64,000 nucleotides of DNA from an uncultured bacterium (GCA_965368975.1 CBDUPA010000010.1:185678-249677), one strand, 5' to 3'; shown: positions 6,211-43,328, numbered from the stretch's first letter. Made by a program: numbers and translations. Notes: generated by a model not told the origin, from the sequence alone.

Positions 6211-6381
6211 ATGAAGAAATCCTATCGACACACGCGCAAGAAGCTCAGCCTGCACCGGGAAACGCTGCACGAGCTGGCTTTGATCGAGGTGGAGGGTGGC
6301 ACCGGCACGACCACAACCACCCTGACCCTGACGACCATCTATACCCGTTCGGACATCTTCCCCGAGTGCATTGTGGTCTGA
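6211..6381 (+). CDS. Putative RiPP precursor peptide P1 (56 aa, Thr-rich core)
   Basis: GGAG RBS at 6201-6204. MKKSYRHTRKKLSLHRETLHELALIEVEGG|TGTTTTTLTLTTIYTRSDIFPECIVV. Leader shared with four other ORFs in the window. Confidence 0.75.
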   Translation: MKKSYRHTRKKLSLHRETLHELALIEVEGGTGTTTTTLTLTTIYTRSDIFPECIVV

Positions 6382-6401
6382 AACCTGCCGCTAGAACAGG
6401 A

Positions 6402-6440
6402 AACCCCGCCGAGCAGGAGCCTCGTTTGGCGGGGTTCTCT
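6402..6440. terminator. Intrinsic terminator-like hairpin between convergent P1 and GH13 genes
   Basis: AACCCCGCC(GAGC)...(GTTT)GGCGGGGTT inverted repeat followed by CTCT. Confidence 0.65.
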
Positions 6441-6489
6441 CGTCTGGGACCGAAGGCCTGGTTTTTCAGGCGAGTTCGTGCTTCCGCCG

Positions 6490-9400
6490 TCAGAGTGAGC
6501 CATCCAAGACCTGCAGGGCGTCCGCCAGCTCCAGCACTCGGTAGCCTGAAAGTTGCTCCGCCGCGGCCAAGCCCTCGATAATCGCAGCCGCATGCTGCAA
6601 CTCCGAATCATCCCTTTCCGTCTCGTCTTCGACTGCGGCCAGTTGAACAGCCGCCGTGGCAGCCAACCACCAGAGCAGCTCGGCGAACTCCTCCTGGCCG
6701 AACCAGTCGACCTCATCGAAACGGTTGATGCCGAGGAAGCGGCGGACGTCAGGGTCCTGAAGCCAGATAGCGGCGTCGAAGCTGCGCCACCAACGTGGAC
6801 GACCGGCGAGCAAAGAAACGGCACCAGCCTGGATCTCGGCAGTCTCCGGCGCGACACCGAGGTCGAGCAGAGTGTCACGAACGACGCGATCGAGCAGCCA
6901 CGTGTCGAAGAGCTCGCGGCTGGTCAAGCCACTATCGTCGGGGTCCAAGAGACGTCCTAGCGGATGCAGGACTATCCAAGCAGCCAGAGAAAAACGGCCA
7001 GCGGGCGCCGGAGCAAATCGCAGCAAGGTGTCGAGTGGGGTCTCGGTAGCGCTCCCTTGGGAAATCTTCGCAGAGGATGCTGGTGCACCAAGCACCGGCA
7101 CCGTCGCTGCCGGCTCGTCGCGGTCTGCCATGATCCCAGGCAACGGAGTCCCAGGCGACGGAGTCCCAGGCGACGGAGTCCCGGGTACCGTGTGCTCCGG
7201 CAGAGTGTGCAGACGTCGCAGTAGTGTCAGGATCTCTTCGACCATCGACTCCACCTCGGTGGCCTCTTCCCCGGGCGTCTCAGCGTCGAGCGCTTCAGCG
7301 TCGCGAGTCTGAGCATCACGCGCCTGAACATCTACAGCAGCCTCTGGGACCACCTGCGCAGTAGCGTCGTCCGCTTCTCGCAGTAAACGCCGCACCGCGG
7401 CTAACGCCTGGTTCAGTTCGGTGCGCACCGCCTGGAGTACCTCGACTTCACTCTTCTCTGGCGCCTCTAGAGGACCCAACCACAACCGTCGCAAGGGCTC
7501 CGCGCCCAGCAGGCGGCGCAGCGGCTCCTGCACCGGTGCGGCACGCAGTTCGGCCAACGCGTCGTCCAGACTGGGCACGCCTCGAATACCAATCATCTGC
7601 CAGAGGCGCTGATAGCGGCCGGCGGCGTCATCCGTGACCTCGTGTAGGTCGACCAGGACGCGACGCTCGTAAGGGCCGAGGCGTAGGGAAAAGCCTCGCA
7701 TCACGACTTCGCTACTGGGGCGCAGGTATTCGCGGCCTTCGATCAGATCGCGGGCCAGCAAGAAGCGTCGGCCTGGCCCCTCCACACTTCCGGCTCCGGG
7801 GCGCAACTGCAGCGCTTCGCCGAGCGTCGAGTGCACCAGGACCCCTTCTCCACCGTCCACCTTCGCGCGCCAGGCGACCGAGTGGTGTGCGTACCCTTCG
7901 GTAAACGCCGGTGTGTTGTGCACGAAGACCAGCGCTGCCTCCTCGTCGTAGCGATTGGAGAGCGCATAGACATCTTCGTTCACGCTGCCGTCCGTGCTCT
8001 GGAAATTGTAGAGCCGGAAGTGCGTGACCTCCGCGAAAATCCGGCGCAACAGTAGCAGCGGTACGATCTCATGCTCATGGCGTTCGATCAACTCCGTGTC
8101 GACAGCCTCGTCGTGGTAGGCACGGGCGTACTCCATGCCGTACTTCTCGCGCAGCCCCTCGAACTGGCCATGGCCGAACATCGGTAGTCCGGGCAGAGTC
8201 GCCATCAGCGTGCAGACGCAGAAGTACTTCTCGCTCGTACCGACCTGCACCGCCGCCGGCTCTTCGTCCGGTGTTGTCAAATAGTTGACGAATCGCTTGA
8301 GCACTTCCGGATCGAATTCCAACGTGTTGCGCAGAGTTTGACGGAACTTGGCGTTTTCCTCGTCGCGCAGCATGTGCATGAAGGCACTGTTGTACACCCG
8401 GTGCATGCCCAGCGTGCGCACAAAGTACCCCTCCATCAGCCAGAAGGCCTCGGCCAGCAGCAGGGTGTCCGGCACCTCAGCCGCAACACGGTCGACTACC
8501 TCACGCCAGAACTCCTCTGGGATGCACCGTTGGAAGGCCTCCTCCGAGATGGCATGCTCGGCGCGCGACGGGATCGCCCCTCCCTGACCGGGCTTGGGAT
8601 ACCACAGGCGCTGGATGTGCCGCTTGGCCAAGGTCATGGCGGCGTCGAAGCGGATCACCGAGAAGCGGCGCGCAACATTCAGGATAGTCTGAATCACCGC
8701 TTCGCGGGCGTCCGGGTCGAGGTAGTCCAGCTGGGCAGTATCGTTCCAAGGGATCGAGGTGCCGTCGTTGCCGTGGTAGACGTAGCGCACCTCGTCCGTA
8801 CTGACGTCCCGGCGCTGGAAGACGACCGCAGCGTCGGTACGGTCGAAGTAGTGGTCCTCTAGCCGTACCTCGACGCGTGCATCGTCGCACAGGTCCTCAC
8901 CGGTGAAGCGATAGTTGGGATAGGGACTGTACGGCAGGGACAGGAACCGCTCTGGATGCTTGACGATCCACTCCGAGTCAATACCGGTGTGATTGGGCAC
9001 CATGTCGCACGCCAAGCGGATGCCCAGCGCCTCGGCGCGCCGGCGCAGATCGTCCCAGGCATCATCCCCGCCCAGCGTCTCGGCGACGCGGTAGGACCGT
9101 AGCGAATACGCCGACGATGCCGCCTCTGGGTTGCCACACAGCTGCTTGACTCGCTGCGACGCTGGACTCCGTTCCCAGATCCCGATCAACCACAAAGAGT
9201 TGAAACCACGGCGGGCCAAGCGGTCGAGTTCGGCGTCGGGGATCTGGTCGAGGCGCTCTATGTCGGTGCCGTACTCGACGCTCAGCTGATGCAGCCAGAC
9301 ATACGTGTTCTTGGCCAGCAGCACGACTTCGGGCATCCAGTCTCGATCCTGACTGAAATGCTCCTCGTCGTCGTCCTGGCCAGCGTAGTCATTGACCGGC

Positions 9401-10290
9401 GGAGGTCCCGGCGGTGGCCCCGGAGCCGCTCCCGCCGACCGAAACGAGGGCTTGGACTCCTCCTTGATCACGTCCATGGCCACCAGCAAGCGATCGCTTT
9501 GCCGCTCGGACCAACCGCTCCCTAGCCAGCCACTATCCAGGAGCCAACGGAGCTGTTCGGTCAATGACTCCGGAGCCTGCTGGATCGGCTCCAGCAGGGC
9601 GTCGAAGAGGCTCAGGGTCGGGGCACGGTCGCTTCTTGACACTGCACCAGCGTCCGGACCCGTTTCTATAGCTGGCGGCATGCCTTCGAAGAACTCGCCC
9701 AGACTCCCTACGATCTCCCGGTAGCCCACATCAGCTTCCAGCTCCGCATCGTCGAACAGTTCAGCTAGCGGGTCGAAGGCCGGATTCTGGTTGGCCAGCC
9801 ACAGCATCAGCAACTCTTCGAGCACGATCTGCCGGTGAGATACTCCGGCCGTCTCCTGCTCCAAGTACTCCGCGACCGTCAACTCACCCCGAACCACCGG
9901 CATCGAGGGAAAGAGTTCCAAGAACCGCCGCAGAGCATGCTCGACCCGATGCTCGCCGAAACGAAGCTCTAGCCAGGACAGCGCCTCGCCCACGACGTCG
10001 CCGTCATGCCGCTGCCGGTACTGGGCGAACAGATGGTGCCAGAGTTCGTCGATCAAGCCGGCCGCATTGAGCGCGCCCGCACTGATCCCCCGCTCCGGAT
10101 GGCGCAGGACATCCCGCTCTTGGTTGATTCGCTGCACCAACTCCCGCGCCGCACCCAGGTTGGCAACGACGATATTGCCGTGAAGCGAGAACAACAGCTC
10201 ATCGACGCCATAGCGCTCTCGGGCACCTTTGGAGATGTGCAACTCCCTCACCACCTGCCCATAGGCTCTGGGCTGCCACCTCTCTACCAT
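6490..10290 (-). CDS. Large alpha-amylase family (GH13) glycoside hydrolase
   Basis: SLWLIGIW, DMVPNH (region I), RFDAAM (nucleophile), LAEAFW (acid/base), TLPGLPMFGHGQ. Confidence 0.8.
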   Translation of the reverse strand: MVERWQPRAYGQVVRELHISKGARERYGVDELLFSLHGNIVVANLGAARELVQRINQERDVLRHPERGISAGALNAAGLIDELWHHLFAQYRQRHDGDVVGEALSWLELRFGEHRVEHALRRFLELFPSMPVVRGELTVAEYLEQETAGVSHRQIVLEELLMLWLANQNPAFDPLAELFDDAELEADVGYREIVGSLGEFFEGMPPAIETGPDAGAVSRSDRAPTLSLFDALLEPIQQAPESLTEQLRWLLDSGWLGSGWSERQSDRLLVAMDVIKEESKPSFRSAGAAPGPPPGPPPVNDYAGQDDDEEHFSQDRDWMPEVVLLAKNTYVWLHQLSVEYGTDIERLDQIPDAELDRLARRGFNSLWLIGIWERSPASQRVKQLCGNPEAASSAYSLRSYRVAETLGGDDAWDDLRRRAEALGIRLACDMVPNHTGIDSEWIVKHPERFLSLPYSPYPNYRFTGEDLCDDARVEVRLEDHYFDRTDAAVVFQRRDVSTDEVRYVYHGNDGTSIPWNDTAQLDYLDPDAREAVIQTILNVARRFSVIRFDAAMTLAKRHIQRLWYPKPGQGGAIPSRAEHAISEEAFQRCIPEEFWREVVDRVAAEVPDTLLLAEAFWLMEGYFVRTLGMHRVYNSAFMHMLRDEENAKFRQTLRNTLEFDPEVLKRFVNYLTTPDEEPAAVQVGTSEKYFCVCTLMATLPGLPMFGHGQFEGLREKYGMEYARAYHDEAVDTELIERHEHEIVPLLLLRRIFAEVTHFRLYNFQSTDGSVNEDVYALSNRYDEEAALVFVHNTPAFTEGYAHHSVAWRAKVDGGEGVLVHSTLGEALQLRPGAGSVEGPGRRFLLARDLIEGREYLRPSSEVVMRGFSLRLGPYERRVLVDLHEVTDDAAGRYQRLWQMIGIRGVPSLDDALAELRAAPVQEPLRRLLGAEPLRRLWLGPLEAPEKSEVEVLQAVRTELNQALAAVRRLLREADDATAQVVPEAAVDVQARDAQTRDAEALDAETPGEEATEVESMVEEILTLLRRLHTLPEHTVPGTPSPGTPSPGTPLPGIMADRDEPAATVPVLGAPASSAKISQGSATETPLDTLLRFAPAPAGRFSLAAWIVLHPLGRLLDPDDSGLTSRELFDTWLLDRVVRDTLLDLGVAPETAEIQAGAVSLLAGRPRWWRSFDAAIWLQDPDVRRFLGINRFDEVDWFGQEEFAELLWWLAATAAVQLAAVEDETERDDSELQHAAAIIEGLAAAEQLSGYRVLELADALQVLDGSL
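7134..7185. repeat. 15-bp tandem repeat (about 3.5 copies) encoding a PGTPS linker in the GH13 gene
   Basis: GGAGTCCCAGGCGAC repeated directly in the sequence. Confidence 0.8.
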
Positions 10291-10370
10291 GTGCTATTTT
10301 CTTGGCTCCGCATTCCGTGCCCACATTAGCAGAGACCCCGAACCCGGCAAAGCCGACAAGACGTAGAAGC

Positions 10371-12671
10371 ATGAAGCAATTTCGATCCCTTCTCTTGACA
10401 GCTATGAGTAGCTTCTTCTGCCTCTGGCCCTTGCAGTCGGCAGCTCAGGAGGTCATGACCTTCACCGCGTCAGATCCTCTCCGTGAGCAGCAAGTCAATC
10501 AGTTCTTCCAGCACCATCTGCTTGGCGGAGCAGGAATCTCGCTGCTCGACCCGACTGCTTTCACTTGGCGCGAATGGAGCGCACTCACCCTTGGACCTGT
10601 GGGTTGGATCGGTTCTAGTCAGAATGTATTGTCCAGCCTCGGAACCTCTCTGATCGAGAACTCGATGACCGATTCTGGCTATGTCTGGAGGTCCGGTGCC
10701 GAACCTGGTGGTTGGAACTTCCCTAACTACACGATGGCCCCCGAGTACCTCACGGGCTACACGTTCGACCAAAACGGTAATACAGAGGGCTGGAGCCTTG
10801 TGAACATCCCCAGCAGTACACCTCAAGGTGGCATCTGGCAACTCTCGGTCCCGGATCCGGATCCCTGGATGGTCTCTCCTACCGTCAGCGTGGATCCCTT
10901 CCACGCTCAGTTCCTGAGAGTTGACATGGCGTCCAACTCGGCCAGCGACGTTGGACAAGTCTTCTGGAAGAGAACGACGGACTCGGGGTTCAGTCAGGAA
11001 CGTTCTCTGCCTTTGACCGTCCGCAACGACGGCGCAATGCATCGCTACTACGTGCCTATGCACGAACATCCTCTCTGGACGGGCACTATCCGGCAGATTC
11101 GTATCGATCCGACATCGTCGGGTGCGAGTGGAGAAACCATCTCGATAGATCGAATCTCATTCGAATACGACGGCCGCATGGCCACCACTAGCGCTATCTA
11201 TGCGTTGGCAGCTTGGCGCTACTACAGTTGGACTGGAAACCAGTGGATCTTCACTTCCACTAACCAGACGCCCCAAGGCAGTATCTTCGACCGAGCCAGA
11301 CTCGCCGTACAATTCTTGATGTCTCAGCTCGACGGCTCGGTCAGTAGCAGTGACTTAGCAAAGGCTCACATCATTCTCGTTCCCTGGGCCGGACACGACG
11401 GCCGACCAGGAAAGATCAACGGAACTCTCAACAAGGGACACGGCCTCCAATCACAGCATTGGATCGACAATCTACCCATCGGGCACGAGAGTGCCCACGC
11501 TACTGTCTTCTACTATGCCGCCGTTCGAGCTCTAGCCGAGCTCGAGAGAGTTCGAGAAGCGCATCCCGGCTGGGGAGTTGCTGCCAACCCGTTCGGCTAC
11601 ACCGCTGCTTCGCTCGAAGCGAAGGCTTCTGCGATCCAAGACAGCCTGCGCAACAACTTCTGGTTGGGAGGCAAGGGGCGCCTGATGGCATGCCGAGATA
11701 TTGACAATGTCATCAGGGACCCGGGCTTGATTCCACTGAATCTGGAGGCCATCTTCTACGAGGCGATCGATGACTTCCGAGCAGACCGGGTTCTGGAGTG
11801 GCTGAACGGTGAAAGGCAGGTCAGCACAGACACCTCTCAGGGAAGCGATCTCTACGCTTGGAGACTGGCACCCAGAGTCACGACAGTTCCGGTGGACGAC
11901 TGGTACATCTGGCCCATGTACCACTGGTTCGGCCTGAACACAGCTCCGGGATTTGGCCAGCAGCTCGCCAACGGAGGAAGTTCTCTGCACCTAACGTTCT
12001 TCGACATTTGGAGCCGGATTCGGCATCGAGGAGCAGACAACGCCTGGAGCCGGTTCGTTGCAGTACTCGACTGGTTTCAGGAGACCCAGAACGCGGGTGG
12101 TTACGACGCCTACTACAATGTGCATCCAGGAACCCCTCAATGCACCCTCGACCCGAGCGAAGGTATCGGAACCCTCGGCGTGAACTGTGAGTTTCCCGAG
12201 TCCGTGCTCGCACCTCTGAGCTTTCTCTACGGCTTCCTCGGAATCACAGCGACGGCTGAGAACCTGACGATCGATCCGGCGCTACCGGCAGACCTGACCT
12301 ACGCGGGAGTCCAGAGACTCTTCTTCCGCCAGCATTTCTACGACGTAACCGTATTTCGTGATGCGATGTCACCCGTACGCATTGCGACACACGCCGGTCC
12401 GGACTTGCCTCTCCCCAATGCTCCTCACGCTCTCCCGATTCGAATTGGTGGCCTGCAACCGAACTCGTCCTATTCGTTGGAGGTCACGAACCTGGACCTT
12501 GGTTCGACGACAGTTGGCAGTGTCGCCTCAAGCATCGACGGTTTTCTCGAGCTAGCAATCTCGATGCCCGCAAATGCACAGTTCGTTCTCCGCAAGGGGC
12601 AGGAAAACGCCATTTTCTCGGACGACTTCGAGTCCGGAGATCTCTTTGCTTGGGCGTTGGTATCGAACTAG
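10371..12671 (+). CDS. Secreted glycoside hydrolase-like protein with a CBM-like insert and a C-terminal IFSDDFESGD motif
   Basis: Signal peptide MKQFRSLLL...AAQ. CBM-like segment (DPWMVSP...WTGTIRQIRIDP), helical catalytic-like region, GFLGI...LTIDPALP C-terminal GH-like motif. Start chosen at ATG 10371. Confidence 0.55.
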   Translation: MKQFRSLLLTAMSSFFCLWPLQSAAQEVMTFTASDPLREQQVNQFFQHHLLGGAGISLLDPTAFTWREWSALTLGPVGWIGSSQNVLSSLGTSLIENSMTDSGYVWRSGAEPGGWNFPNYTMAPEYLTGYTFDQNGNTEGWSLVNIPSSTPQGGIWQLSVPDPDPWMVSPTVSVDPFHAQFLRVDMASNSASDVGQVFWKRTTDSGFSQERSLPLTVRNDGAMHRYYVPMHEHPLWTGTIRQIRIDPTSSGASGETISIDRISFEYDGRMATTSAIYALAAWRYYSWTGNQWIFTSTNQTPQGSIFDRARLAVQFLMSQLDGSVSSSDLAKAHIILVPWAGHDGRPGKINGTLNKGHGLQSQHWIDNLPIGHESAHATVFYYAAVRALAELERVREAHPGWGVAANPFGYTAASLEAKASAIQDSLRNNFWLGGKGRLMACRDIDNVIRDPGLIPLNLEAIFYEAIDDFRADRVLEWLNGERQVSTDTSQGSDLYAWRLAPRVTTVPVDDWYIWPMYHWFGLNTAPGFGQQLANGGSSLHLTFFDIWSRIRHRGADNAWSRFVAVLDWFQETQNAGGYDAYYNVHPGTPQCTLDPSEGIGTLGVNCEFPESVLAPLSFLYGFLGITATAENLTIDPALPADLTYAGVQRLFFRQHFYDVTVFRDAMSPVRIATHAGPDLPLPNAPHALPIRIGGLQPNSSYSLEVTNLDLGSTTVGSVASSIDGFLELAISMPANAQFVLRKGQENAIFSDDFESGDLFAWALVSN

Positions 12672-14065
12672 CTCAGCAAATAAGTGCTGCGAATCCAGGC
12701 CAGACAGCACACATTCACCAAGATCATCACTACCGCAATGGCAAGCGACCAACGCCAGGAACTCTCCCTGGTCGTCAGCTTCGATTCTTGCAGTCCCCAG
12801 CTGGCAAACACTGCGAAGACTCCCACTGACGGCAAGAGAAAGCGACCTTGTGGTTGGAAGTCCACGCGTAGCAGGAAAAGCAGCAACAAGAGTCCGTTCA
12901 TTGCCAACGCGGAAAACAGCAATGGTCCCAGCACCTGCGGCTTGGCTCGATCCTGTCGAGTCTCCTCGCCGGCCGTGGTCGACCTGGGGGATAGTTCTCG
13001 CACCCAACGCACCAGTCCAAAGGCGATTGCAGTGGTCGGAACGAGGAAGATGAGATAAGACTGCCAGGGCAAGGGCAGATTGAACCAGCCGAACTTGGCC
13101 CAGAAGCTCAACCAGACCGAAGCCAACCAGCGCAGCTCCACGACTCTCTCCAAGGACTCGGCTAGACCTCCGGCATAGCCGGTCGGAGGCGGAGGCCAGA
13201 GCGCTCCAAAGCGCCACCAGCAAAGGCCAAACCAAGCAGCTAGGCCCGCACCAACCGGTAGTGACAACGCAGCGGCCAGTTTCCACCAGCTCTTGCGAAG
13301 CCAAACCAGCAACAGCAGCGCGGTGGGCGCCAAGAGAAAGAAAGCTGTCGCCTTGGCGAAAGGGCCCAGTGCCACCAACAAGCCTGCACCCATCGCGAGC
13401 AGCAACGGTGGATCCGAAGCAGCAACGGTTGCTTCCGAATCGGTTGCCGCCCGTGCCAGGGCGGCGAGAGCAGCTAGAGCGGCGGTTGACAGAGCAATGG
13501 CGGCGCTGTCGTTGTTGACAGTGGCACAGACAAAGAGAAGCTGCGGTACCAGCGCAAAGGTCCACAAGGCCCCGCCGAAGGTGGCAGAGTCAGCGCAAGC
13601 GGTCTCCAAGAGCCACATGAGGGACGCCACGGTCACCAACCCCCACATCAAGGACAGCAAGCGCAGTACCAGCAGGGGACTTCGCTCTGCCGGCGTCCAC
13701 GTCATGGGCAAGAAAGCCCGAGAGCCAGTATTGTCGAAGCGCAGGTCCGGATTGGGCTGTGCTGGAAAGGTGACGCGCTGGAGTCCCACTGTGCGCAGGA
13801 GCGTGACACCTAGCCAGTACTGCAGAGGCGGGTGATGCGCCTGGTAGTTGAAGGCGTCAGGCTGGCCCGGAGGCGCCGGTAGCGTCCCATGGTCGAGCAG
13901 GTAACCGGCATAGAAGATGTGAGCCGCCTCGTCCGGCGCCTCTCCGAGCGGAACGGTGAGAACGTAGCCGACACCGAGAAGCGCGAAGACCGTGAGGATT
14001 AGCCAGCGCGGAGGCGATGCGGCTCGCTCCGCGAGGGTCGGCTCAGGATGCTGCGCGCCGGGCAT
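12668..14065 (-). CDS. Polytopic GT-C family glycosyltransferase (ArnT/DUF2142-like)
   Basis: PLGEAPDEAAH loop motif, HHPPLQY, VNND, SFWAKFGW, QGRFLLP, many TM helices. Start uncertain (14065 or 14083). Confidence 0.7.
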   Translation of the reverse strand: MPGAQHPEPTLAERAASPPRWLILTVFALLGVGYVLTVPLGEAPDEAAHIFYAGYLLDHGTLPAPPGQPDAFNYQAHHPPLQYWLGVTLLRTVGLQRVTFPAQPNPDLRFDNTGSRAFLPMTWTPAERSPLLVLRLLSLMWGLVTVASLMWLLETACADSATFGGALWTFALVPQLLFVCATVNNDSAAIALSTAALAALAALARAATDSEATVAASDPPLLLAMGAGLLVALGPFAKATAFFLLAPTALLLLVWLRKSWWKLAAALSLPVGAGLAAWFGLCWWRFGALWPPPPTGYAGGLAESLERVVELRWLASVWLSFWAKFGWFNLPLPWQSYLIFLVPTTAIAFGLVRWVRELSPRSTTAGEETRQDRAKPQVLGPLLFSALAMNGLLLLLFLLRVDFQPQGRFLLPSVGVFAVFASWGLQESKLTTRESSWRWSLAIAVVMILVNVCCLAWIRSTYLLS

Positions 14066-15059
14066 CTTCGGCCGTAGAACCACCCTCGGGTACGTGTTCG
14101 TGCGCGTGGTAGGAACTGCGCACCAGCGGACCGGATTCGCAGTAGGCGAAACCGATCTCCAGCGCGTAGCTCTTGTAGTCCGCGAATTCTTCCGGCGTCA
14201 CCCAGCGGTCGACCGGCAGGTGCTTGGAGGTCGGCTGCAGGTACTGGCCGATGGTCAGCACTTCCACCCCAGCATCCTGAATGTCGCGCATGGTGGCGAA
14301 GAGTTCGTCTTGGGTCTCGCCGATGCCCACCATCACGCTTGTCTTGATGCGCCCCGCGGCGGTCTGTCCCGGCGCGTCGGTCACCACGTAGTCGCCCGCG
14401 TCGCGACGCCGGGCGGCTTCGGCAAGCAGCGCCAGGCTGCGCTCGTAGCGGCTACCCGGCCGAGCCTTGCGGTACATGCGCGGCACGGTCTCCATGTTGT
14501 GCGAAAAGATCTCCGGCTGCGCACCGAGTACGAGATCCAGCGCTTCCGGAACGCCGCGAAAGTCCGGCGTCAGCACCTCGACGGCACAATGCGGGTTCTC
14601 GGTGTGGATCGCTTCGATCACCTGGGCAAAGTGGCGCGCGCCGCCGTCGGGCAGGTCGTCACGGTCCACTGAGGTGATTACCGCGTGTTGCAGCCCCATC
14701 ACCCGCACCGCCTCCGCCACGTGTACCGGCTCGTCGACGTCGACGCCCGCATTGGGACGGCCAGAGGTCACCGCGCAGAAACCACAGCGCCGGGTGCAGA
14801 TGTCACCCAGAATCATGAACGTGGCGGTGCCATGCTGGCCCCAGCATTCGTAGATGTTGGGGCAGCGAGCCTCCTCACAGACGGTGTTCAGCTTTAGGTT
14901 GCCGATCAGGCGTTTGATCTCGTGATAGCGCTTCGGTGTCTTGAGCCGAATGCGCAGCCAGTCGGGACGATTGTGGCGTTTCAGAGCCTGGGAGACAGCT
15001 GGCGGGTCGGTGTTCGGCGAGGTGCGGGGAGCACCGATCTGGACGAGGTTCTCGCTCAT
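14043..15059 (-). CDS. lipA: Lipoyl synthase
   Basis: CEEARCPNIYEC, CTRRCGFC radical SAM motif, VRSSY. Confidence 0.96.
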   Translation of the reverse strand: MSENLVQIGAPRTSPNTDPPAVSQALKRHNRPDWLRIRLKTPKRYHEIKRLIGNLKLNTVCEEARCPNIYECWGQHGTATFMILGDICTRRCGFCAVTSGRPNAGVDVDEPVHVAEAVRVMGLQHAVITSVDRDDLPDGGARHFAQVIEAIHTENPHCAVEVLTPDFRGVPEALDLVLGAQPEIFSHNMETVPRMYRKARPGSRYERSLALLAEAARRRDAGDYVVTDAPGQTAAGRIKTSVMVGIGETQDELFATMRDIQDAGVEVLTIGQYLQPTSKHLPVDRWVTPEEFADYKSYALEIGFAYCESGPLVRSSYHAHEHVPEGGSTAEDARRAAS

Positions 15060-15216
15060 GCCGCCAAGTCTACGCTAGGGGTGGGTGGGGGTCTAGTCGC
15101 TACGGGAGCTACGGGAACGTCGACGGGGCGGAAAGGCGACATGACGTATCATAGGTTATCAATGTGGAGATCACACGGATCTCTACATCTGCAATCTCGC
15201 CCCAAAGGAGATCCTG

Positions 15217-15450
15217 ATGAAGAAACGCAATCGCAAACTCAACCTGCACCGCGAAACCCTCCGTCAGCTCAACGGCACTGCCATCCAAGAAGTTGCAGGT
15301 GGGACGCAAGGAACCTGCGCCACCTACAACACCTGGGCTATCTGTGGACAACAGTGCGGTAGTGCGAACTGCAGCCTGAACTGCCCAGGCACAGGCGGTG
15401 CCTACTCTTACTGCTTCTGTCCGGAGACCGACACCGTCGACTTCTGCTAA
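15217..15450 (+). CDS. Putative RiPP precursor peptide P2 (77 aa, 8-Cys core)
   Basis: AAAGGAG RBS at 15204-15210. MKKRNRKLNLHRETLRQLNGTAIQEVAGG|TQGTCATYNTWAICGQQCGSANCSLNCPGTGGAYSYCFCPETDTVDFC. Confidence 0.82.
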   Translation: MKKRNRKLNLHRETLRQLNGTAIQEVAGGTQGTCATYNTWAICGQQCGSANCSLNCPGTGGAYSYCFCPETDTVDFC

Positions 15451-15459
15451 AGCTGGTTG

Positions 15460-15494
15460 ATCAATCCCGCCCTGCCATTCAGGGCGGGACTGAT
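15460..15494. terminator. Terminator-like hairpin after P2
   Basis: TCCCGCCCTG-CCATT-CAGGGCGGGA, flanked by ATCA/TGAT. Confidence 0.65.
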
Positions 15495-15529
15495 GTCTTG
15501 CCGTTGATCCCGCTAGGCCTCGTGGCGGC

Positions 15530-16270: not shown

Positions 16271-16296
16271 CTCTGAATAGCAGCGGAAGGCGAAAG

Positions 16297-20475
<4,179 letters not shown>

Positions 20476-34780: not shown

Positions 34781-34791
34781 GGGTCGCCTCC

Positions 34792-35190: not shown

Positions 35191-35251
35191 CTCCTAATTT
35201 GTTCGTGCAGCCGTTCAGCTCAATGGCCCAATTCCCTGAGACTCTAGAGTC

Positions 35252-35707: not shown

Positions 35708-35789
35708 CTCTCGCTCCAAAGTTTCGAAATCTGCCAAACCTGTGCGGCGCGAACCCGGCCTTCGGACAGACTCCGCACAGAGGATCGAG

Positions 35790-35818
35790 AGGATAGGACA
35801 CCGAGACCTGCCTGTCAA
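35790..35818 (-). promoter_or_regulatory. Putative sigma70 promoter of rplM
   Basis: TTGACA-17 nt-TATCCT on the minus strand. Confidence 0.6.
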
Positions 35819-35912
35819 CCCCGCCGCGGGCGTCGCTCGCGCGATGGCGTCACGGTACAATCGGGACAGGCAACTTACCACGAGTGACACCCATACGGAG
35901 ATTTCCAGCAGC

Positions 35913-36905: not shown

Positions 36906-38086
36906 TGCGACGCCTGCTCGTCGGTCTCACCGGTGGCCTGGCCAGCGGCAAATCCACCGTCGCCCGCCTGTGCCACGAAGCGGGGTGTACCGTCATCGAC
37001 GCTGACCAGGTCGTCGCCGAGCTGTACCGGCCCGGCGGTGCAGGCGCGGCAGCCGTGCGGGAGCTGTTCGGCGACAAAGTCCTGACACCGGACGGCGCCG
37101 TCGATCGCCCCAAGGTCGCCGAGCAGGTCTTCGGCGATGCCAGTGCTCGGAAGCGGCTGGAAGAAGCGGTCCACCCCTTGGTCAAGGCACGGACTGAAGA
37201 ACTGCTGCAAGCGTCGGAAGGGCTGGTTGTCTACGAGGCAACCTTGTTGGTCGAAGCCGGTCGCGCCGACCGCTTCGACGTCGTCGTGAGCGTCGAGGCG
37301 GATCCCGAGCTGCGGCTGCGGCGAGCCGTCGAGCGCGGCATGGACGAAGCCGGCGCGCGGGCGAGATTGGAAGCGCAGGGCGATGGCGCGGCCCGGCGGG
37401 CAAGAGCGGATCACGTGCTGCACAATGACGGCGACCTGGCGGACCTGGCCGCAAGCGTCGAGGCGTTGCTCGCGCAGCTCGTCGAGCAGCTGCATACCGT
37501 GCCGGCGAGCGTCGCCGAGATACTGCGTCGAGCCGTGCTGGTGACCGGGAATCGCAACAAGGCGATCGAAGCGGCACGTCTACTGGGGGGCGTCGAACTG
37601 GAAACGGTGGCCGTCGACTTGCCGGAGGTCCAGGGATTGGACGCGGTCGAGGTGCTACAAGCCAAAGCCGACGTCGCGTGGGAGCGGCTGCAACGGCCGA
37701 TCATCGTCGAGGACACGGGCCTAGAGCTGGATGCCATGAACGGCTTTCCGGGGCCGCTGGTCAAGTGGATGCTCCAAGCGATGGGCAAGGAGGGGATCGC
37801 ACGGACGGGACTGGCGCTGGGCAACGCCGACGTCTGGGCGCACTGCGCGCTGTACTACCGGGATGGGGAGAAAAGCGTCGTGGCGCATGGGCGAACCGGT
37901 GGAACCTTGGTGCTACCGGCGCGGGGGGAGTCGGGCTTTGGGTGGGATGGGGTGTTTCAGCCCGCCGGGCGCGAGAGGACGTATGCGGAGATGCCGGCGA
38001 GCGTCAAGGACTTGCTGGGGCACCGGGGGCGGGCTTGGCGGGGGCTGGTGGAAGAGCTGCAACCCAGAATTCACAACCACTTCTAG
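36905..38086 (+). CDS. coaE: Fusion of dephospho-CoA kinase (CoaE) and Ham1/RdgB non-canonical purine NTP pyrophosphatase
   Basis: N-half GLTGGLASGKST, IDAD, VHP. C-half TGNRNK, EDTGL, GFPGPLVKW, FGWD, GHR. Single continuous frame. Confidence 0.85.
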   Translation: MRRLLVGLTGGLASGKSTVARLCHEAGCTVIDADQVVAELYRPGGAGAAAVRELFGDKVLTPDGAVDRPKVAEQVFGDASARKRLEEAVHPLVKARTEELLQASEGLVVYEATLLVEAGRADRFDVVVSVEADPELRLRRAVERGMDEAGARARLEAQGDGAARRARADHVLHNDGDLADLAASVEALLAQLVEQLHTVPASVAEILRRAVLVTGNRNKAIEAARLLGGVELETVAVDLPEVQGLDAVEVLQAKADVAWERLQRPIIVEDTGLELDAMNGFPGPLVKWMLQAMGKEGIARTGLALGNADVWAHCALYYRDGEKSVVAHGRTGGTLVLPARGESGFGWDGVFQPAGRERTYAEMPASVKDLLGHRGRAWRGLVEELQPRIHNHF

Positions 38087-41000
38087 GTCCGATTAGGTGG
38101 ACATATAGCAACACGAAAGCCCAGGTGCTTGGCCTGAATATTCGGAGGCCCCAAAGTGCGAACCGAACAGCGCAGATCAGGGCGCGGGTAGAACCATGCA
38201 CTACTACGGACCACTCGAGACTCCCTGAGTTTTGATTCCACAGTTTCTCGACACGCCCGCTCTTTCTCGTCTGACGGATATGGTGGGTCAGCTGCCAAAC
38301 TACGGGTCCATTCCAAGATGGACCCAACCATTTCTTCACAGCCTACAACACTGCGGCCCTCAGGAAAATTACCCAGGGCGTTAGTAGCCCCGAGCCTTTC
38401 TGCACCATTTACATAGTCTTGCTGGTATTTTGAACCCCAAGGGTAAATCCGCTTCGGCTGACTGTTCGTGACCAGATTACTCTTCAACTTCGTGCACTCG
38501 TGAGTTAATTCAGAGAGCGGCAGACAAACTGCCGGAATCTCTTGACACTCACCACCACGTGCAGCTTTCTCCCACTCCAGCTCAGACGGCAAGGTCACTA
38601 CCCATCCCTCTGGCAACCAACCCTCATACTGAGCCTCATCTTGTAACCAAGCGCAGTAAGCCAAGGCTTCGTACCAGCTGATTCCGATTGCTGGATGATT
38701 AGGCAATATTAGAACTTCATTAAAAACATCGCCAGGCTCTCGCCGTCCACGGAATCCCGTATCTTCATCCCAGTACCCCGCTTCAAGCGCGGCCCCCCAA
38801 TAACGGCACTGCCGGTTTCCCCCAGCACTGACAAAGACCTGGAATTGGCTCTGCGTCACTGGATAACGTCCTAGCCAATAATCGTAATCCACCGCCTGAA
38901 GTACGGAAGGTGCTTCTTGGATAGGCCAATGTAGAGGAGTCTCTTCACTCCCCATCCAGAACGGCCCCCTCCTCACTCGGCAAAACTCCATGCCCTCGAC
39001 CGTCATCACCTCCGGACGAGGATCTCCCAACTTTGCCAACAAGCGCCCCGCCTCGACCCGCTCCCGCACCGGCAACCCCTTGGGCACCAGTGACACCAGC
39101 CGGCGCCAGCACCGGCTGACGAACTTCGGCCACGGCTCCGGCCCTTTGAGGCTCACCCTCGCCGAGCCCACCTGTGTACCTGACTGCGTATCTGACTGGG
39201 CTCCCGGCTGGGTTCCCGGTTGGCCTTCCAGGAGCACCACCATCCACGCCGCCCAGAGACTCGCCCGCTTCGCCTTCTGGCTCTTGTTGCGCGTCCCCGA
39301 GGGGAACAGACCGGACGCCAGCCTCGGAACAAGGTGCCCCATGCGTCGGCAGTACACCAACTCTTCCACGCCCAATTGCACCGCCAGCGTCCAGAAGTCT
39401 CCAGCGGCGGTCAACTCGAAGAGCTCGCCCACCGGATCCGGCAGCGTCGTCAGGTAACAGCCAGCCAGGTACTCCTGGAACGTCCGGTGCGGGAAGCTGT
39501 AGCGAAGCGGCTCGTCCGGACCGCCACCACGGCCCACCAGGATGCCGGCGCGATCGTCGACGTAGTCGAGAAAGGCTTCGGCCAAGCTGAGCGAGCCGAG
39601 GTACGTGGAAGCTTCCAGCAGCCCCAGCAGCCCCAGCCGATCCAGACCAGCTTCGTCCGTATCAGCCCCCTGCCTGCCGACCTCTTGCTCTGCCTTGTGC
39701 ACTTCGAAGGCCAGCCGTTCCAGGATCGGCCGGATCCGGTGCTCATCGTCCAGGACCGGACCGAGTTGCTCGGCGATGTCAGGACTCAAGCCCTTGCGCT
39801 TCTGCCAGCGCACCAGCAGAATCCGCACCGCCTCGTCGTACAGCTTGACCCGTTGCCGTGGCAGACCGATGTTCTGCTGGTGGATCAGCGCCATCGTGGT
39901 GAGCAACATCGGATTCTCTGCCAGCTCCCGCAGATCCTGGGCGGCAGCCTGGAGATCTTCCGTGCGCTTCTGGGCCTTGTCCGCATCCAGGTGCCCGTGG
40001 CGCTGCTGGGCCTGGTACCAGGCGGCGATGAACTTGTCGATCTGCTCCTCACTGAAGGGCGCCAGTTCGTGCACCTCGAAATCCGGCAAGCGTGCATCTC
40101 CCTCGTACGAGCGCACGCGGCAAGTGACGATCACCCGCTCCACGCGGTATACCTGCAACGCCGCCTGAACCGCCTCGACGACCAGCGGTCGCAACTTGGC
40201 GCGCACCTCGTCGAGACCGTCGAGAATCAGCAGGCACTTGCCATCCACCAGGGCGTCACGCAATCCGTCCTCGAAGGCTTGCGCGTCGCTGCGCCGGGCC
40301 AGCTCCAGGACGGAGTCTCGCAGCGCCTCAGTCAAGGCTTCGCGCCGCCGCTCAGCGGACTTGCCAGCGAGGTCCAACTCCGCAAGGTGCGGCGCCAGAT
40401 CACGGAGGACGACAAGAATCGGCAGCAGATCTTCCGCCCAGGCCTGCGTGTCGGCGCCGTCCAGCCGTGCCTTCGCCAAGCGAGCCGCGATGTGCCGAAC
40501 GAAGGAACTCTTGCCACTGCCTGGATCTCCGAGAAGCACAAGGCGCGGCAGGGTCTCGGCGGCTTCTTGAGCAGAAAGAATACGAACCTCTCGACCGCCT
40601 CGGAGTTGTTCGTCAGCAAAGAGCTTCTCGTCAGCCTCCGACAGAGGAATACCCGTCTTCGTCCGCAGCTCGACGTATACGTCACTGAGCTGCACCTCTC
40701 CCAGACCGTCCCCCTGCCCGCCCAACTGCTGCAACGGCAACGCCTGACACTCCGCCACCAGCCGCTCCAGGTACCGCCGCCGCGCCTTCTCGACACTGTC
40801 ATCGCCAGCTACAGGCACCGCCTCCTGACGCTGCATCACCTGCAACGACTGCAACAACAGCTGCACCCCTACCAAGGAAGCCCCCTGCACCGGTAAGCTC
40901 TCCAGCTGCACCGCGATCCGCTGCAACTGCTCCAGCATCGCCGTCTGCAACTGCGTCTGCCCCCGAACATGGAAGGAGACCAGCTCCCCCTGCAGCACCG

Positions 41001-41418
41001 GCTGACGCACCGCCGCCATCACAAACGCGGCCTCCAGCTGCCGCAATCCGATCTCGGGCTCCAATCCCGGAAACGAAGCCAACGCCCGGTCGTGCTCGGC
41101 AAAGATCTCGATCACCTCGCCGATGGCCAGCTCCTTGCCGTCCAGGCACGCTTGCAATTCCTGCCCGAAGTCCTCGACTAAGGCTTCGTTCTGGAACGCC
41201 AGCTGGAACATCGTGTGTAGGTGGCTCTCATCATCTTTGCCAGACGTCTGGGCACTGGCGGTCAGCGCGGACAGACCAGCACCGCAGCAAGCTTCCAGCG
41301 CATTCTGTCGCTCGTCCCCACTGAGCCAGCGGCGGGCGGCGCGCGTCGAGGCGGAGAGAATCGCTGCGGCGAGATTGCCGGCAGCACCGGTCAGGATGTT
41401 GGAAAAAGGATCAGGCAC
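38083..41418 (-). CDS. NACHT NTPase with a C-terminal FGE-sulfatase (SUMF1/C-type lectin fold) domain
   Basis: Walker A GDPGSGKS, Walker B LLILDGLDE, NPMLLT, FPHRTFQEYLAG. C-terminal FWMGS, YPVTQSQF, LPSELEWEKAARG, GFRVA. Confidence 0.85.
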   Translation of the reverse strand: MPDPFSNILTGAAGNLAAAILSASTRAARRWLSGDERQNALEACCGAGLSALTASAQTSGKDDESHLHTMFQLAFQNEALVEDFGQELQACLDGKELAIGEVIEIFAEHDRALASFPGLEPEIGLRQLEAAFVMAAVRQPVLQGELVSFHVRGQTQLQTAMLEQLQRIAVQLESLPVQGASLVGVQLLLQSLQVMQRQEAVPVAGDDSVEKARRRYLERLVAECQALPLQQLGGQGDGLGEVQLSDVYVELRTKTGIPLSEADEKLFADEQLRGGREVRILSAQEAAETLPRLVLLGDPGSGKSSFVRHIAARLAKARLDGADTQAWAEDLLPILVVLRDLAPHLAELDLAGKSAERRREALTEALRDSVLELARRSDAQAFEDGLRDALVDGKCLLILDGLDEVRAKLRPLVVEAVQAALQVYRVERVIVTCRVRSYEGDARLPDFEVHELAPFSEEQIDKFIAAWYQAQQRHGHLDADKAQKRTEDLQAAAQDLRELAENPMLLTTMALIHQQNIGLPRQRVKLYDEAVRILLVRWQKRKGLSPDIAEQLGPVLDDEHRIRPILERLAFEVHKAEQEVGRQGADTDEAGLDRLGLLGLLEASTYLGSLSLAEAFLDYVDDRAGILVGRGGGPDEPLRYSFPHRTFQEYLAGCYLTTLPDPVGELFELTAAGDFWTLAVQLGVEELVYCRRMGHLVPRLASGLFPSGTRNKSQKAKRASLWAAWMVVLLEGQPGTQPGAQSDTQSGTQVGSARVSLKGPEPWPKFVSRCWRRLVSLVPKGLPVRERVEAGRLLAKLGDPRPEVMTVEGMEFCRVRRGPFWMGSEETPLHWPIQEAPSVLQAVDYDYWLGRYPVTQSQFQVFVSAGGNRQCRYWGAALEAGYWDEDTGFRGRREPGDVFNEVLILPNHPAIGISWYEALAYCAWLQDEAQYEGWLPEGWVVTLPSELEWEKAARGGECQEIPAVCLPLSELTHECTKLKSNLVTNSQPKRIYPWGSKYQQDYVNGAERLGATNALGNFPEGRSVVGCEEMVGSILEWTRSLAADPPYPSDEKERACRETVESKLRESRVVRSSAWFYPRPDLRCSVRTLGPPNIQAKHLGFRVAICPPNRT

Positions 41419-41553
41419 AGCACCTCCGTGCAGGAAAATGGTCTTGCTTCTACTGCTCTCAGAAAATCATCTGAATTGTATACCGGAGCCCAGTATGGCC
41501 ATGAAGAGCTTGAGCATCCTGCCCTGCCCGCTCCAAGCATCATGCGTGCGTGG

Positions 41554-41582
41554 TTGACACACCCTCGTCACATCGCTACCAT
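41554..41582 (+). promoter_or_regulatory. Near-consensus sigma70 promoter of peptide P3
   Basis: TTGACA (41554-41559)-17 nt-TACCAT (41577-41582). Confidence 0.65.
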
Positions 41583-41674
41583 CTCGTCGTTCCCAGATTT
41601 CATTTCTTCCTGATCGCAGAGTACCTACTATCGTTAAGCGGACTGCTTACAGTCCATCTGTAGGAGGCTTTGCC

Positions 41675-41863
41675 ATGAAGAAATCCAGAAAGAATCAGAA
41701 GCTCGGTCTGTCCCGTGAAACGCTCAGCAAACTTCTGCCAACCCAAATCTCACGGGTAGCAGCTGGAGACTCTGAAGCGGCCTCACATTGCATTATGGAG
41801 AGCTACCTGTGGGGCTGCTTCGCTGTTACGGTCGAGAACTCGTATTGCGAGTGCTCACCGTAG
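41675..41863 (+). CDS. Putative RiPP precursor peptide P3 (62 aa, 4 Cys)
   Basis: AGGAGG RBS at 41662-41667. MKKSRKNQKLGLSRETLSKLLPTQISRVAAG|DSEAASHCIMESYLWGCFAVTVENSYCECSP. Confidence 0.8.
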   Translation: MKKSRKNQKLGLSRETLSKLLPTQISRVAAGDSEAASHCIMESYLWGCFAVTVENSYCECSP

Positions 41864-42071
41864 TGTAGGCGCTCTAAACGAGGCAAGACCAGCCCGATAC
41901 AGCAAGTACGCCAGCGGCACCTTGCTGCACCCAAACCTCTAGAAGCAAGACTTTGCGCAAGGCAACTTAACGATCACAGAATTGCAGGCAAAGTGCAGAC
42001 CATAACCCTCTCACCACAGCAGGTGTTCCACGTTGAGACCGGGTGGTTCACCCCAAAATAGGGAGGAACTA

Positions 42072-42251
42072 ATGAGAAAACGCAACCAGGTCAGCAAACT
42101 CGCTCTTTCCCGGGAAACGCTCAGCAACCTCACCGCCAACCAGATCGCGGACGTACTCGGTGCGGTGGAAACCTACACTTGTTCCAGCGAAGGACCGTAC
42201 AACTGCGACACCATGTATATCTCGCTTTGCTATTGCCCGGGTGATCCATAA
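42072..42251 (+). CDS. Putative RiPP precursor peptide P4 (59 aa, 4 Cys)
   Basis: GGGAGG RBS at 42061-42066. MRKRNQVSKLALSRETLSNLTANQIADVLGA|VETYTCSSEGPYNCDTMYISLCYCPGDP. Confidence 0.8.
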   Translation: MRKRNQVSKLALSRETLSNLTANQIADVLGAVETYTCSSEGPYNCDTMYISLCYCPGDP

Positions 42252-42294
42252 GCAAGGCGATAATCGGCCACGTAAAAATGTGGAGTTTCTAGAA

Positions 42295-42339
42295 CCGGGC
42301 TCCATCGGCTTGGTCTCCTTTCCAACCGACGGAGCCTGG
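42295..42339. terminator. Hairpin after P4
   Basis: GGCTCCATCGGCTTGG...CCAACCGACGGAGCC imperfect inverted repeat. Confidence 0.45.
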
Positions 42340-42424
42340 CAGTTCCTACTCCTAACAATCCTCGAAAGCAAACGCTCGGGCTGATGAAGGCCATGTCGAA
42401 CGGAGTGCGTTCACCTTCGCTTAG

Positions 42425-42793
42425 CTACGCCAGGCTCCCACCATAACCTCGGGATCCGCTAAGTCCATACCGCTGCATGGTCGACAGCGCTTCGACCTCC
42501 TGACGCCGAGCTTCCGCCCCAATGACTGCCACCGCTTGCTCCGGCCGGTTCACGGCCAAGTCGAAACGGGCTTGAAGGTTGAGCCAAAACTGAGGCGACG
42601 TATCGAACGCCTGCGAGAGCAACCACGCCGTCTTCGCGGTTACCCCACGCCGGCCCCGCACCAACTCACCGATCTGGCGCGTCGAGACGCCCAGGTGATG
42701 GGCAAGAGCGGCCTGACTGAGCCCAAGCGGCGCCAAGAATTCTTCCTTCAAAATTTCGCCGGGGTGTGTCGGGGTGCGGTGGGTTGGTAGCAT
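42425..42793 (-). CDS. higA: HigA/VapI-family antitoxin (HTH)
   Basis: PTHPGEILKEEFL, LSQAALA, GRRGVT...AFDTSPQFWLNLQ. Confidence 0.88.
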   Translation of the reverse strand: MLPTHRTPTHPGEILKEEFLAPLGLSQAALAHHLGVSTRQIGELVRGRRGVTAKTAWLLSQAFDTSPQFWLNLQARFDLAVNRPEQAVAVIGAEARRQEVEALSTMQRYGLSGSRGYGGSLA

Positions 42794-42815
42794 GGTGAGT
42801 CTCCCGTCTCTGTGC

Positions 42816-42878
42816 ATGATAGGCGATGATCTGGACCTCGTGGGCATCCTGCCCCTGCCAGCGGAAAATAATGCGCCA
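42816..42878 (-). pseudogene. higB: C-terminal remnant of a HigB (RelE-family) toxin
   Basis: WRIIFRWQGQDAHEVQIIAYH directly upstream of higA matches the HigB C-terminus (WRIxF...DYH). The N-terminus and the stop codon are missing. Confidence 0.65.
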
Positions 42879-42880
42879 AA

Positions 42881-43042
42881 GCACGCTCCGACATCTCGCC
42901 GGACATGGCGATTCGGCTCTCCAAAGCCTTCGGCAGCTCACCCGGAGCGTGGATCCGAATGCAGGCCGCCTACGACACCGCCAAGGCCAATGCTCGGGCG
43001 GATGAGATTCATGTCGAGCGGTATGTACCAGCTTTCGCCTAG
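42881..43042 (+). pseudogene. 5'-truncated second HigA-family antitoxin
   Basis: RSDISPDMAIRLSKAFGSSPGAWIRMQAAYDTAKA...VERYVPAFA*. In-frame TAA just upstream (42869-42871); no HTH N-terminus. Confidence 0.7.
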
Positions 43043-43068
43043 GTCATTCCCACTCTCTCGAAGGCCGC

Positions 43069-43097
43069 TTGACAGCTCCCAATCTCGCACTTACGCT
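43069..43097 (+). promoter_or_regulatory. Near-consensus sigma70 promoter of peptide P5
   Basis: TTGACA (43069-43074)-17 nt-TACGCT (43092-43097). Confidence 0.6.
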
Positions 43098-43178
43098 GCT
43101 TACCAGATCCGAATCTCCATCGTCTCCATTTCGGAGACAACACCGGCTGCGTTGCAGCCACTTCCAGGAGGAAGCAGC

Positions 43179-43328
43179 ATGAAGAAGACCACCAAGAACC
43201 GCGAGAAGCTGAACCTCAACCGCGAGACCCTGGGCACCCTGACCGAGGGTGACATGGAGCGCGCCGCGGGCGGCAGCTGCCTGACCTGCGCCACGGGCAC
43301 CTGCGAGGGTGATGCCTTCGCGGCCTGA
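43179..43328 (+). CDS. Putative RiPP precursor peptide P5 (49 aa, 3 Cys)
   Basis: AGGAGG RBS at 43166-43171. MKKTTKNREKLNLNRETLGTLTEGDMERAAGG|SCLTCATGTCEGDAFAA. Confidence 0.8.
   Translation: MKKTTKNREKLNLNRETLGTLTEGDMERAAGGSCLTCATGTCEGDAFAA

Follow-up and report, generated by a model that had tools for sequence, protein, structure and literature searches.

Scattered precursor genes with an L1a-type leader and their predicted maturation by a class I lanthipeptide enzyme set in an uncultured bacterium

Which enzymes, if any, act on a family of peptide precursors whose genes have no modifying enzyme beside them? The question is raised by five small open reading frames (ORFs 1-5) on the plus strand of a 64,000-nucleotide stretch of DNA from an uncultured bacterium (hereafter the window; positions 185678-249677 of contig C10 in a 7.13 Mb assembly of 59 contigs with 65.4% G+C). 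They share a KLxLxRETL leader, and an initial annotation took them for orphan precursors of peptides synthesized ribosomally and modified post-translationally (RiPPs) served by a distant enzyme. We put the probability at about 65% that the five genes and their relatives encode class I lanthipeptide precursors, matured in trans by a LanB dehydratase and LanC cyclases from another contig (C13), then cut and exported by unlinked double-glycine exporters. Trans-processing by the C13 LanB/LanC, cleavage by C39-peptidase exporters, and expression of the genes are all what we infer here.

The leader family in the window and across the genome

All five window ORFs begin with M[KR]K, followed by basic residues and then KL.L.RETL..L; their coordinates, plus strand, sequences, and leader ends (residues 29-32) were reproduced exactly as annotated (Table 1). 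The motif L-x-L-x-R-E-T-L-x-x-L is present in every one of the five leaders, which end with GG, GG, AG, GA, and GG in ORFs 1 to 5, respectively, and the N-terminal KLxLxRETL block is the best-conserved part of the leader in the family alignment. LxLxKx5L combined with Gly-Gly is a class I lanthipeptide leader type described for Bacteroidetes in Walker et al. 2020 (PMC7268733), where many LxLxKx5L leaders are said to end in Gly-Gly and a C39 protease to lie often in the same cluster; all five window leaders display this pattern with a Gly-Gly-type end, Arg replacing Lys. The likeness to class I lanthipeptide precursors noted initially was borne out by the NCBIfam model NF038153 (lant_leader_L1a, class I lanthipeptide), whose curated cut-off of 22 bits is passed by three of the five (ORF2, 23.7 bits; ORF4, 24.1 bits; ORF5, 25.2 bits). 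A profile of the family itself recovers all five window ORFs, ORF1 with 34.6 bits, and a second tool returned family E-values of 2.3e-11, 5.1e-17, and 2.2e-13 for ORFs 1, 2, and 3, respectively.

Searches for other leader classes gave no Nif11 or NHLP leader family in NCBIfam or Pfam matching the window peptides at E<=10, and no significant match in a Pfam scan of the five. TIGR04149 (GG_sam_targ_CFB), a model of RiPPs modified by radical S-adenosylmethionine (SAM) enzymes, matched only ORF5, at 12 bits, far under its 25-bit cut-off. Pfam accession PF28317.1 is precomputed on nine database homologues (P0130, P0134, P0141-P0143, P0149, P0152, P0154, and P0157), and this recent Pfam family may already cover the family leader. 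Judged by sequence, the window ORFs are L1a-leader class I LanA members: every sequence feature that we tested agrees, the customary adjacency to LanB/LanC excepted. We regard it as highly probable that they are true precursor genes of RiPP type and belong to the L1a family.

The family extends far beyond the window. The motif L.L.[RK][ED]T[LIVM] recurs well above chance, since a six-frame translation of the genome holds 51 occurrences vs 6 of the reversed form. NF038153 gave 45 matches genome-wide at E<=10 (16 of these passed the cut-off), and a profile made solely from the window's five leaders found 53 frames at E<=10, seeds counted (48 others). After three profile iterations there were 55 distinct family ORFs in the genome, 53 with a full-sequence E<=1e-4; the count of 55 includes two tandem C4 copies that are weak in the profile (15.9 and 11.9 bits) and were admitted manually. 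An independent tool with a model from 33 of the 55 members returned 54 matches at E<=1e-3, both C4 copies among them and only C7:124411 missing. Exactly five copies lie inside the window, and the initial expectation of many more genome-wide was borne out, with 55 ORFs in all once the profile of five leaders was extended. K-mer enrichment upstream of the 55 genes revealed no regulon motif, just Shine-Dalgarno words and a weak CGCTAG/GCTAGC in 8 sequences.

We then compared leaders and cores. Among 54 members (1431 pairs), mean pairwise identity was 46.5% in the leader vs 23.8% after shuffling, and 25.6% in the core vs 24.3%, i.e. at shuffle level; core sequence is shared only between tandem neighbors. 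In family cores, Cys accounts for 11.8% of residues, Thr for 11.4%, and Ser for 8.3% (1.0%, 5.0%, and 5.5%, respectively, in long frames of the genome); in family leaders, Cys accounts for 0.1% and Lys for 12.8%. A conserved leader followed by a variable, Cys-rich core is the RiPP architecture that had been proposed. At least one Cys is present in 54 of the 55 cores; the single member without one, C11:198981-199091, has a normal leader and a four-residue core (SVNK), lies within a run of four C11 copies, and is probably a truncated copy. A Shine-Dalgarno core stands at -18 to -4 in 53 of the 55 members, and the G+C content at third codon positions (GC3) of the family is 0.74-0.76, vs an overall G+C of 0.59 in its coding sequences, a height that real coding sequence of this genome should show.

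A profile search of 5.8 billion proteins returned 37 matches at E<=1e-3. Two of these, ORF5 orthologues in other assemblies, are 73% and 76% identical to ORF5, with a core that is nearly unchanged and kept at least as well as the leader. The expectation that the leader should be better conserved than the core across homologues therefore holds for paralogues, where the leader is far better kept, and is reversed in the ORF5 orthologues. A core that is free between paralogues but kept between orthologues is what a functional product predicts.

Candidate enzymes and a model of the LanB-leader complex

Genome-wide searches gave no match to Lant_dehydr_N/C, LANC_like, Peptidase_C39, YcaO, or DUF4135 on contig C10, and the sole radical SAM match within the window is a lipA-like gene (14043-15059), in agreement with the annotated lack of a RiPP enzyme or C39 exporter in the 64 kb. 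The label "orphan" fits the five genes within the window only; in the genome, LanB, LanC, and C39-peptidase ATP-binding cassette (C39-ABC) exporters are all present. The only full-length LanB of the genome lies on C13 and is homologous to solved dehydratases (9g04, 191 bits; MibB, 186 bits; NisB, 88 bits). It is followed directly on its 3' side by two family precursors and then by two LanC genes. Aligned with LanC proteins of solved structure, the products of both retain WC.G and CHG, motifs that we take to be zinc ligands. These two precursors rank 8th and 15th of 53 under the five-leader profile, so the LanB-adjacent leaders do not differ from the scattered ones. The distant enzyme set that the initial annotation had postulated accordingly has a candidate, one LanB and two LanC proteins with adjacent precursors of their own that bear the same leader.

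Customary adjacency to LanB and LanC is absent from the window ORFs and rare in the family: 2 of the 55 members adjoin LanB/LanC, and two more (C1:561433 and C13:186394) each lie just upstream of a lone LanC-like gene. Adjacency of LanA to LanB/LanC is a custom and not a mechanistic requirement. No family member was found within 10 kb of the C18 LanM, the other LanC-domain proteins, the C12 split LanB, the C9 LanB-like genes, or the C39 exporters; because these enzyme loci have no family neighbor, about 50 of the 55 family genes are without a recognized RiPP enzyme within 10 kb. The split LanB (C12:117131-121003) consists of a Lant_dehydr_C ORF (367 amino acids) directly preceding an N-domain ORF (921 amino acids), and the C9 locus (C9:118735-128334) of three LanB-like frames (878, 944, and 1698 amino acids) with weak Lant_dehydr_N matches, the longest with two copies of the N-domain.

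Three C39-ABC exporters are encoded elsewhere in the genome (Peptidase_C39, 105-117 bits). One of them, C13:97270-99537, is an equivalog of TIGR03796 (NHLP-family bacteriocin exporter; 1094 bits), which suggests that the genome is probably also running an NHLP/Nif11-type RiPP system, of which the C18 LanM is perhaps a part. With GG-type sites in the window leaders and C39-ABC exporters in the genome, both elements of a double-glycine peptide system are present, cleavage itself being predicted.

Using an alignment of 47 relatives for the C13 LanB and one of 33 paralogues for the ORF5 precursor, we modeled the complex that residues 1-840 of the former would make with the latter. The complex score was 0.68 (median of 0.70, 0.68, and 0.68), compared with 0.00 for the best of three controls, and passes a mark that 58 of 80 solved complexes and 2 of 110 mismatched pairs attained; these counts apply only roughly here, since the model was built on our own alignments. 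At least 40% of the contacts were common to the runs, and the predicted local distance difference test score (pLDDT) of the partner was at least 47. The confident contacts join leader residues 10-22 (KLNLNRETLGTLT), i.e. the conserved block, to LanB residues 244-268 and 290-314, and the interface includes LanB residues that are invariant across the 47 LanBs (R244, A246, E247, H257-V260, L268, L290, A304, E310, and L311). The model thus supports, as a prediction, binding of the L1a leader by the C13 LanB.

Put together, the proposed pathway would begin with translation of each family gene from its own strong ribosome-binding site. The KLxLxRETLxxL motif of the leader would be bound by the C13 LanB, which would dehydrate Ser and Thr of the core (class I LanB enzymes use glutamyl-tRNA), and the two LanB-adjacent LanC cyclases would add core Cys to form thioether rings, a step to which the two lone LanC-like genes beside other family members may contribute. 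One of the three C39-ABC exporters would then cut after the double-glycine site and export the peptide. The predicted outcome is a library of unrelated Cys/Thr/Ser-rich peptides from one enzyme set, a class I counterpart of prochlorosin/ProcM.

Other genomes and alternative explanations

The best named matches of RpoC (84-87% identity) and of the LanB (50-55%) are metagenome-assembled genomes of Thermoanaerobaculia/Acidobacteriota, and the host class is, on these sequence matches, probably Thermoanaerobaculia (Acidobacteriota). Among 40 relatives, NF038153 matched (E<=0.01) in 7 genomes, each with a LanB that scores 355 bits or more; among the 33 relatives without a leader match, 3 have a LanB above 250 bits. 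Leader matches were found in none of the five same-family relatives. In a phylum sample of 250 genomes, all at least 90% complete (leader E<=1e-3, LanB E<=1e-30), leader genes were present in 8 of 22 LanB-positive and 0 of 228 LanB-negative genomes, a count that depends in part on G182, an unpublished genome among the eight. A strong LanB accompanies the leader in all 15 leader-positive genome listings of the two samples (7 + 8, with G011 in both).

Family-model matches at E<=1e-3 number 54 in the genome under study (G000), 33 in G011, 31 in G030, 22 in G039, and 24 in G250, which makes a scattered pattern in five genomes of four genera, G000 being favored as the genome on which the model was trained. 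In the latter four, the 110 matches are all on contigs other than the one with that genome's strong LanB, and as the assemblies are fragmented, a location on another contig says less than a measured distance would. G007 has 7 matches, six of them in one tandem cluster, and in several of the genomes with one or few leader matches, a match lies within a few kb of LanB. Of five loci with LanB relatives from named genomes, two of them short or partial, one has an adjacent family precursor; it is from Pedobacter, where a LanB relative of 30% identity has a family-type precursor 2.4 kb away.

Several observations weigh against maturation by the C13 enzymes. The NF038153 cut-off is missed by ORF3, narrowly (20.5 bits), and by ORF1 (13.2 bits). 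The success of the complex model may partly reflect likeness to a known structure, because the NisB-leader complex (4wd9) has been solved, and the partner fold is uncertain because its pLDDT is under 50. Co-occurrence counts overstate their support, since related genomes are not independent, and 14 of the 22 LanB-positive genomes of the phylum sample have no leader match, so a LanB does not imply an L1a leader. The genome under study also encodes a LanM, three other LanC-domain proteins, and several LanB-like genes. Finally, the member at C27:37553 lies directly upstream of genes for an asparagine-synthase-like protein, a radical SAM enzyme, and a flavin adenine dinucleotide (FAD) oxidoreductase, a neighborhood from which it follows that the L1a-type leader is not strictly bound to LanB. 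In that region (C27:27000-42000, locus L066), the precursor at L066:10554-10718 leads an apparent operon, an MbnB/TglH/ChrH-family gene lies upstream, and a 780-amino-acid YcaO is encoded about 7 kb away; the locus is possibly a hybrid RiPP cluster in which an L1a-type leader is used again.

Of the alternatives, one would drop modification altogether: bacteriocin-like or signaling double-glycine peptides would be exported without dehydration or cyclization, with disulfides at most, and the leader would be an export signal only. All five leaders do end in GG, GA, or AG, the genome has three C39-ABC exporters, none linked to the LanB cluster, and for about 50 of the 55 genes, no recognized modifying enzyme lies within 10 kb. 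However, what is best conserved in the leader is the KLxLxRETL block, which matches the class I lanthipeptide leader model and is the part placed on conserved LanB residues in the complex; the cores are enriched in Thr and Ser besides Cys, and leader genes were found in none of the 228 LanB-negative genomes of the phylum sample. We therefore hold unmodified export to be unlikely.

It is no less doubtful that most of the scattered precursors are served by another enzyme (the C18 LanM, the C12 or C9 LanB-like proteins, a C27-type set of radical SAM and asparagine-synthase-like enzymes, or an unrecognized one), the leader being common to several RiPP pathways. Many other RiPP enzymes are encoded in the genome, but the 10 kb on either side of the LanM/LanKC/LanL-like loci, of the split LanB, and of the C9 LanB-like genes contain no family member, and the weak TIGR04149 match of ORF5, which would suit a radical SAM pathway, scores far under its cut-off. 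The operon led by the C27 member is a point in favor of a second enzyme set, and with at least one copy recruited in this way, a mixed picture is possible; C27 aside, LanB and LanC are the only enzyme genes found adjoining family members, and a strong LanB accompanies every leader-positive listing. Decaying duplicates or chance frames that have lost expression are very improbable, for although the C11:198981 copy has a core of just four residues and leader genes were found in none of the same-family relatives searched, a Shine-Dalgarno site stands at the right distance in 53 of the 55 members, the high GC3 fits coding DNA of this genome, 54 of the 55 are intact and have Cys in the core, two orthologues preserve the core of ORF5, and the motif counts are 51 forward vs 6 in reverse.

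Maturation by the C13 LanB/LanC remains the reading that we prefer. Its extension to a lineage-level library is an evenly balanced proposition: some Thermoanaerobaculia would have independently evolved a class I prochlorosin-like strategy in which one LanB, separate LanC proteins, and unlinked exporters handle 20-55 scattered precursors, including some among housekeeping genes.

Window features and comparison with known systems

Table 1 Coordinates of the precursor genes, nearby signals, and neighboring genes in the window (window numbering), and of the LanB locus on contig C13.
Feature	Position	Strand	Details
Precursor gene 1 (ORF1)	6211-6381	+	56 amino acids; leader residues 1-30, EVEGG end; Thr-rich core with 1 Cys, 11 Ser+Thr
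Hairpins 3' of gene 1, G+C-rich	6402-6470	+	Fold energy -40.3 kcal/mol, z -2.1
Terminator-like site 3' of gene 1	6444-6461	+	T run after it
Precursor gene 2 (ORF2)	15217-15450	+	77 amino acids; leader residues 1-29, EVAGG end; core with 8 Cys, 7 Thr, 3 Ser (10 Ser+Thr)
Hairpin 3' of gene 2	15460-15494	+	10-bp G+C stem; -42.5 kcal/mol, z -2.8
NACHT/STAND NTPase fused to C-terminal FGE-sulfatase domain	38083-41418	-	1111 amino acids; borders low-G+C stretch
Sigma-70-like promoter match	41554-41582	+	About 90 nt 5' of gene 3; 10 of 12 hexamer positions; consensus match only
Precursor gene 3 (ORF3)	41675-41863	+	62 amino acids; leader residues 1-31, RVAAG end; core with 4 Cys, 6 Ser+Thr
Precursor gene 4 (ORF4)	42072-42251	+	59 amino acids; leader residues 1-31, DVLGA end; core with 4 Cys, 6 Ser+Thr
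Hairpin 3' of gene 4	42295-42339	+	-37 kcal/mol, z -3.7; 0 of 200 shuffles equally stable
HTH_3 gene	42425-42847		In low-G+C stretch
Precursor gene 5 (ORF5)	43179-43328	+	49 amino acids; leader residues 1-32, RAAGG end; core SCLTCATGTCEGDAFAA with 3 Cys, 4 Ser+Thr
Hairpin with U-rich tail 3' of gene 5	43353-43397	+	-43.9 kcal/mol, z -4.2; terminator-like site 43370-43384
Mrr_cat nuclease gene	43676-44680		Other border of the stretch with ORFs 3-5
LanB, full-length, only one in genome	C13:48590-52069		Lant_dehydr_N 495 bits, Lant_dehydr_C 227 bits
Two family precursors directly 3' of C13 LanB	C13:48210-48422 and C13:47889-48104		Two LanC genes next

Each window ORF has its own ribosome-binding site, as annotated, of the GGAG/GAGG type and 5-10 nt upstream of the ATG (GGAG in ORF1). 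The downstream hairpin that had likewise been ascribed to each is present for ORFs 1, 2, 4, and 5 (z -2.1 to -4.2); for ORF3, the fold-energy test gave no stable hairpin (z -0.36), and its transcription may run on into ORF4. A consensus terminator scan did not flag the hairpin of gene 2, in which the T run is absent. Of the 26 residues in the ORF1 core, 10 are Thr, five of them consecutive, and its lone Cys is near the C-terminus, a composition that is unusual in the family.

The window encodes RpoC, EF-Tu, S2, EF-Ts, FolD, and CoaE, a molybdopterin oxidoreductase, and a NACHT-type NTPase with genes of the helix-turn-helix (HTH) and Mrr-like kinds. Upstream of ORF1 lie the molybdopterin oxidoreductase operon and a porin-like gene; ORF2 is divergent from the lipA-like gene and stands beside rpoC. 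In two same-family genomes (G001 and G003), different genes flank lipA, and no insertion boundary for ORF2 is derivable from them. ORFs 3-5 occupy a low-G+C stretch at 41.2-44.7 kb (G+C 0.50-0.58 vs 0.64-0.70 around it) that is set among housekeeping genes. Two further genes are unrelated to the precursors: 6490-10290 (minus strand) encodes a 1266-amino-acid protein with a weak match to the alpha-amylase catalytic domain, and 47399-50470 (plus strand) a 1023-amino-acid protein of the penicillin-amidase family.

If the C13 enzymes do act on the scattered precursors, a LanB with a stand-alone LanC can handle dozens of unrelated cores, which would bear on how a ring pattern is chosen without a fixed match between enzyme and substrate and would provide peptide engineers with a new pair of leader and enzyme. 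Since the abundant Acidobacteriota are poorly cultured, little is known of their peptide chemistry. RiPP precursors are also undercounted by cluster-based genome mining, since a RiPP enzyme of the kinds that we searched for stands within 10 kb of only about 5 of the 55; the search of Walker et al. was restricted to seven genes on each side of a LanC-domain gene (PMC7268733). Given the prochlorosin precedent, the arrangement should hold solid interest for those who study RiPP biochemistry or mine genomes, without being revolutionary. To our knowledge, combinatorial one-enzyme lanthipeptide libraries have so far been a hallmark of class II ProcM-type synthetases in cyanobacteria. The openly available literature that we searched, without subscription papers and supplements, gave no description of a scattered class I lanthipeptide library, and a prior one may exist.

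The described systems nearest in enzymes are those of the pinensins, Ped15 (Pedobacter lusitanus), the thalassomonasins, and the viridisins, which like the present one have a separate LanB and LanC. Their hosts are Bacteroidota or Gammaproteobacteria, whereas the host here is probably an acidobacterium (Thermoanaerobaculia). L1a-type precursors are themselves already known, since Ped15, the thalassomonasins, and the viridisins are modified by their LanB/LanC in E. coli, as stated in PMC9680876. That paper describes several precursors per enzyme pair, as we propose here, and precursors that adjoin the enzyme genes, whereas here the nearest lanthipeptide enzyme is more than 10 kb away for about 50 of the 55. 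Gram-negative class I double-glycine systems, as described in PMC7268733, also share the LxLxKx5L-type leader with a GG end instead of an FxLD box; the fifth motif position is mostly Arg here, vs Lys in the LxLxKx5L leaders described.

With NisB-NisA (4wd9), the comparison is one of leader recognition. In our model, the conserved leader motif lies against an element of strand and helix within the N-terminal domain of LanB, and NisB presumably binds its FNLD box at the equivalent site. The motif recognized would thus be KLxLxRETL in the C13 LanB model and FNLD in NisB-NisA.

The arrangement of the genes is closest to that of the prochlorosins and ProcM, a class II system of marine picocyanobacteria. 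For these, PMC7268733 and PMC10783134 describe numerous precursors in which the leader is conserved and the core hypervariable, many of them encoded far from a single synthetase; the pattern here is the same. The prochlorosins have a Nif11-type leader and one bifunctional LanM, whereas the present family has an L1a leader and, as candidate enzymes, a LanB and separate LanC proteins. The family is not a member of the prochlorosin/ProcM system, because its leader is not of the Nif11/NHLP type and its candidate enzymes are class I. What the sequences point to is a known type of precursor in a new, dispersed arrangement, a class I likeness of the prochlorosins with predicted maturation.

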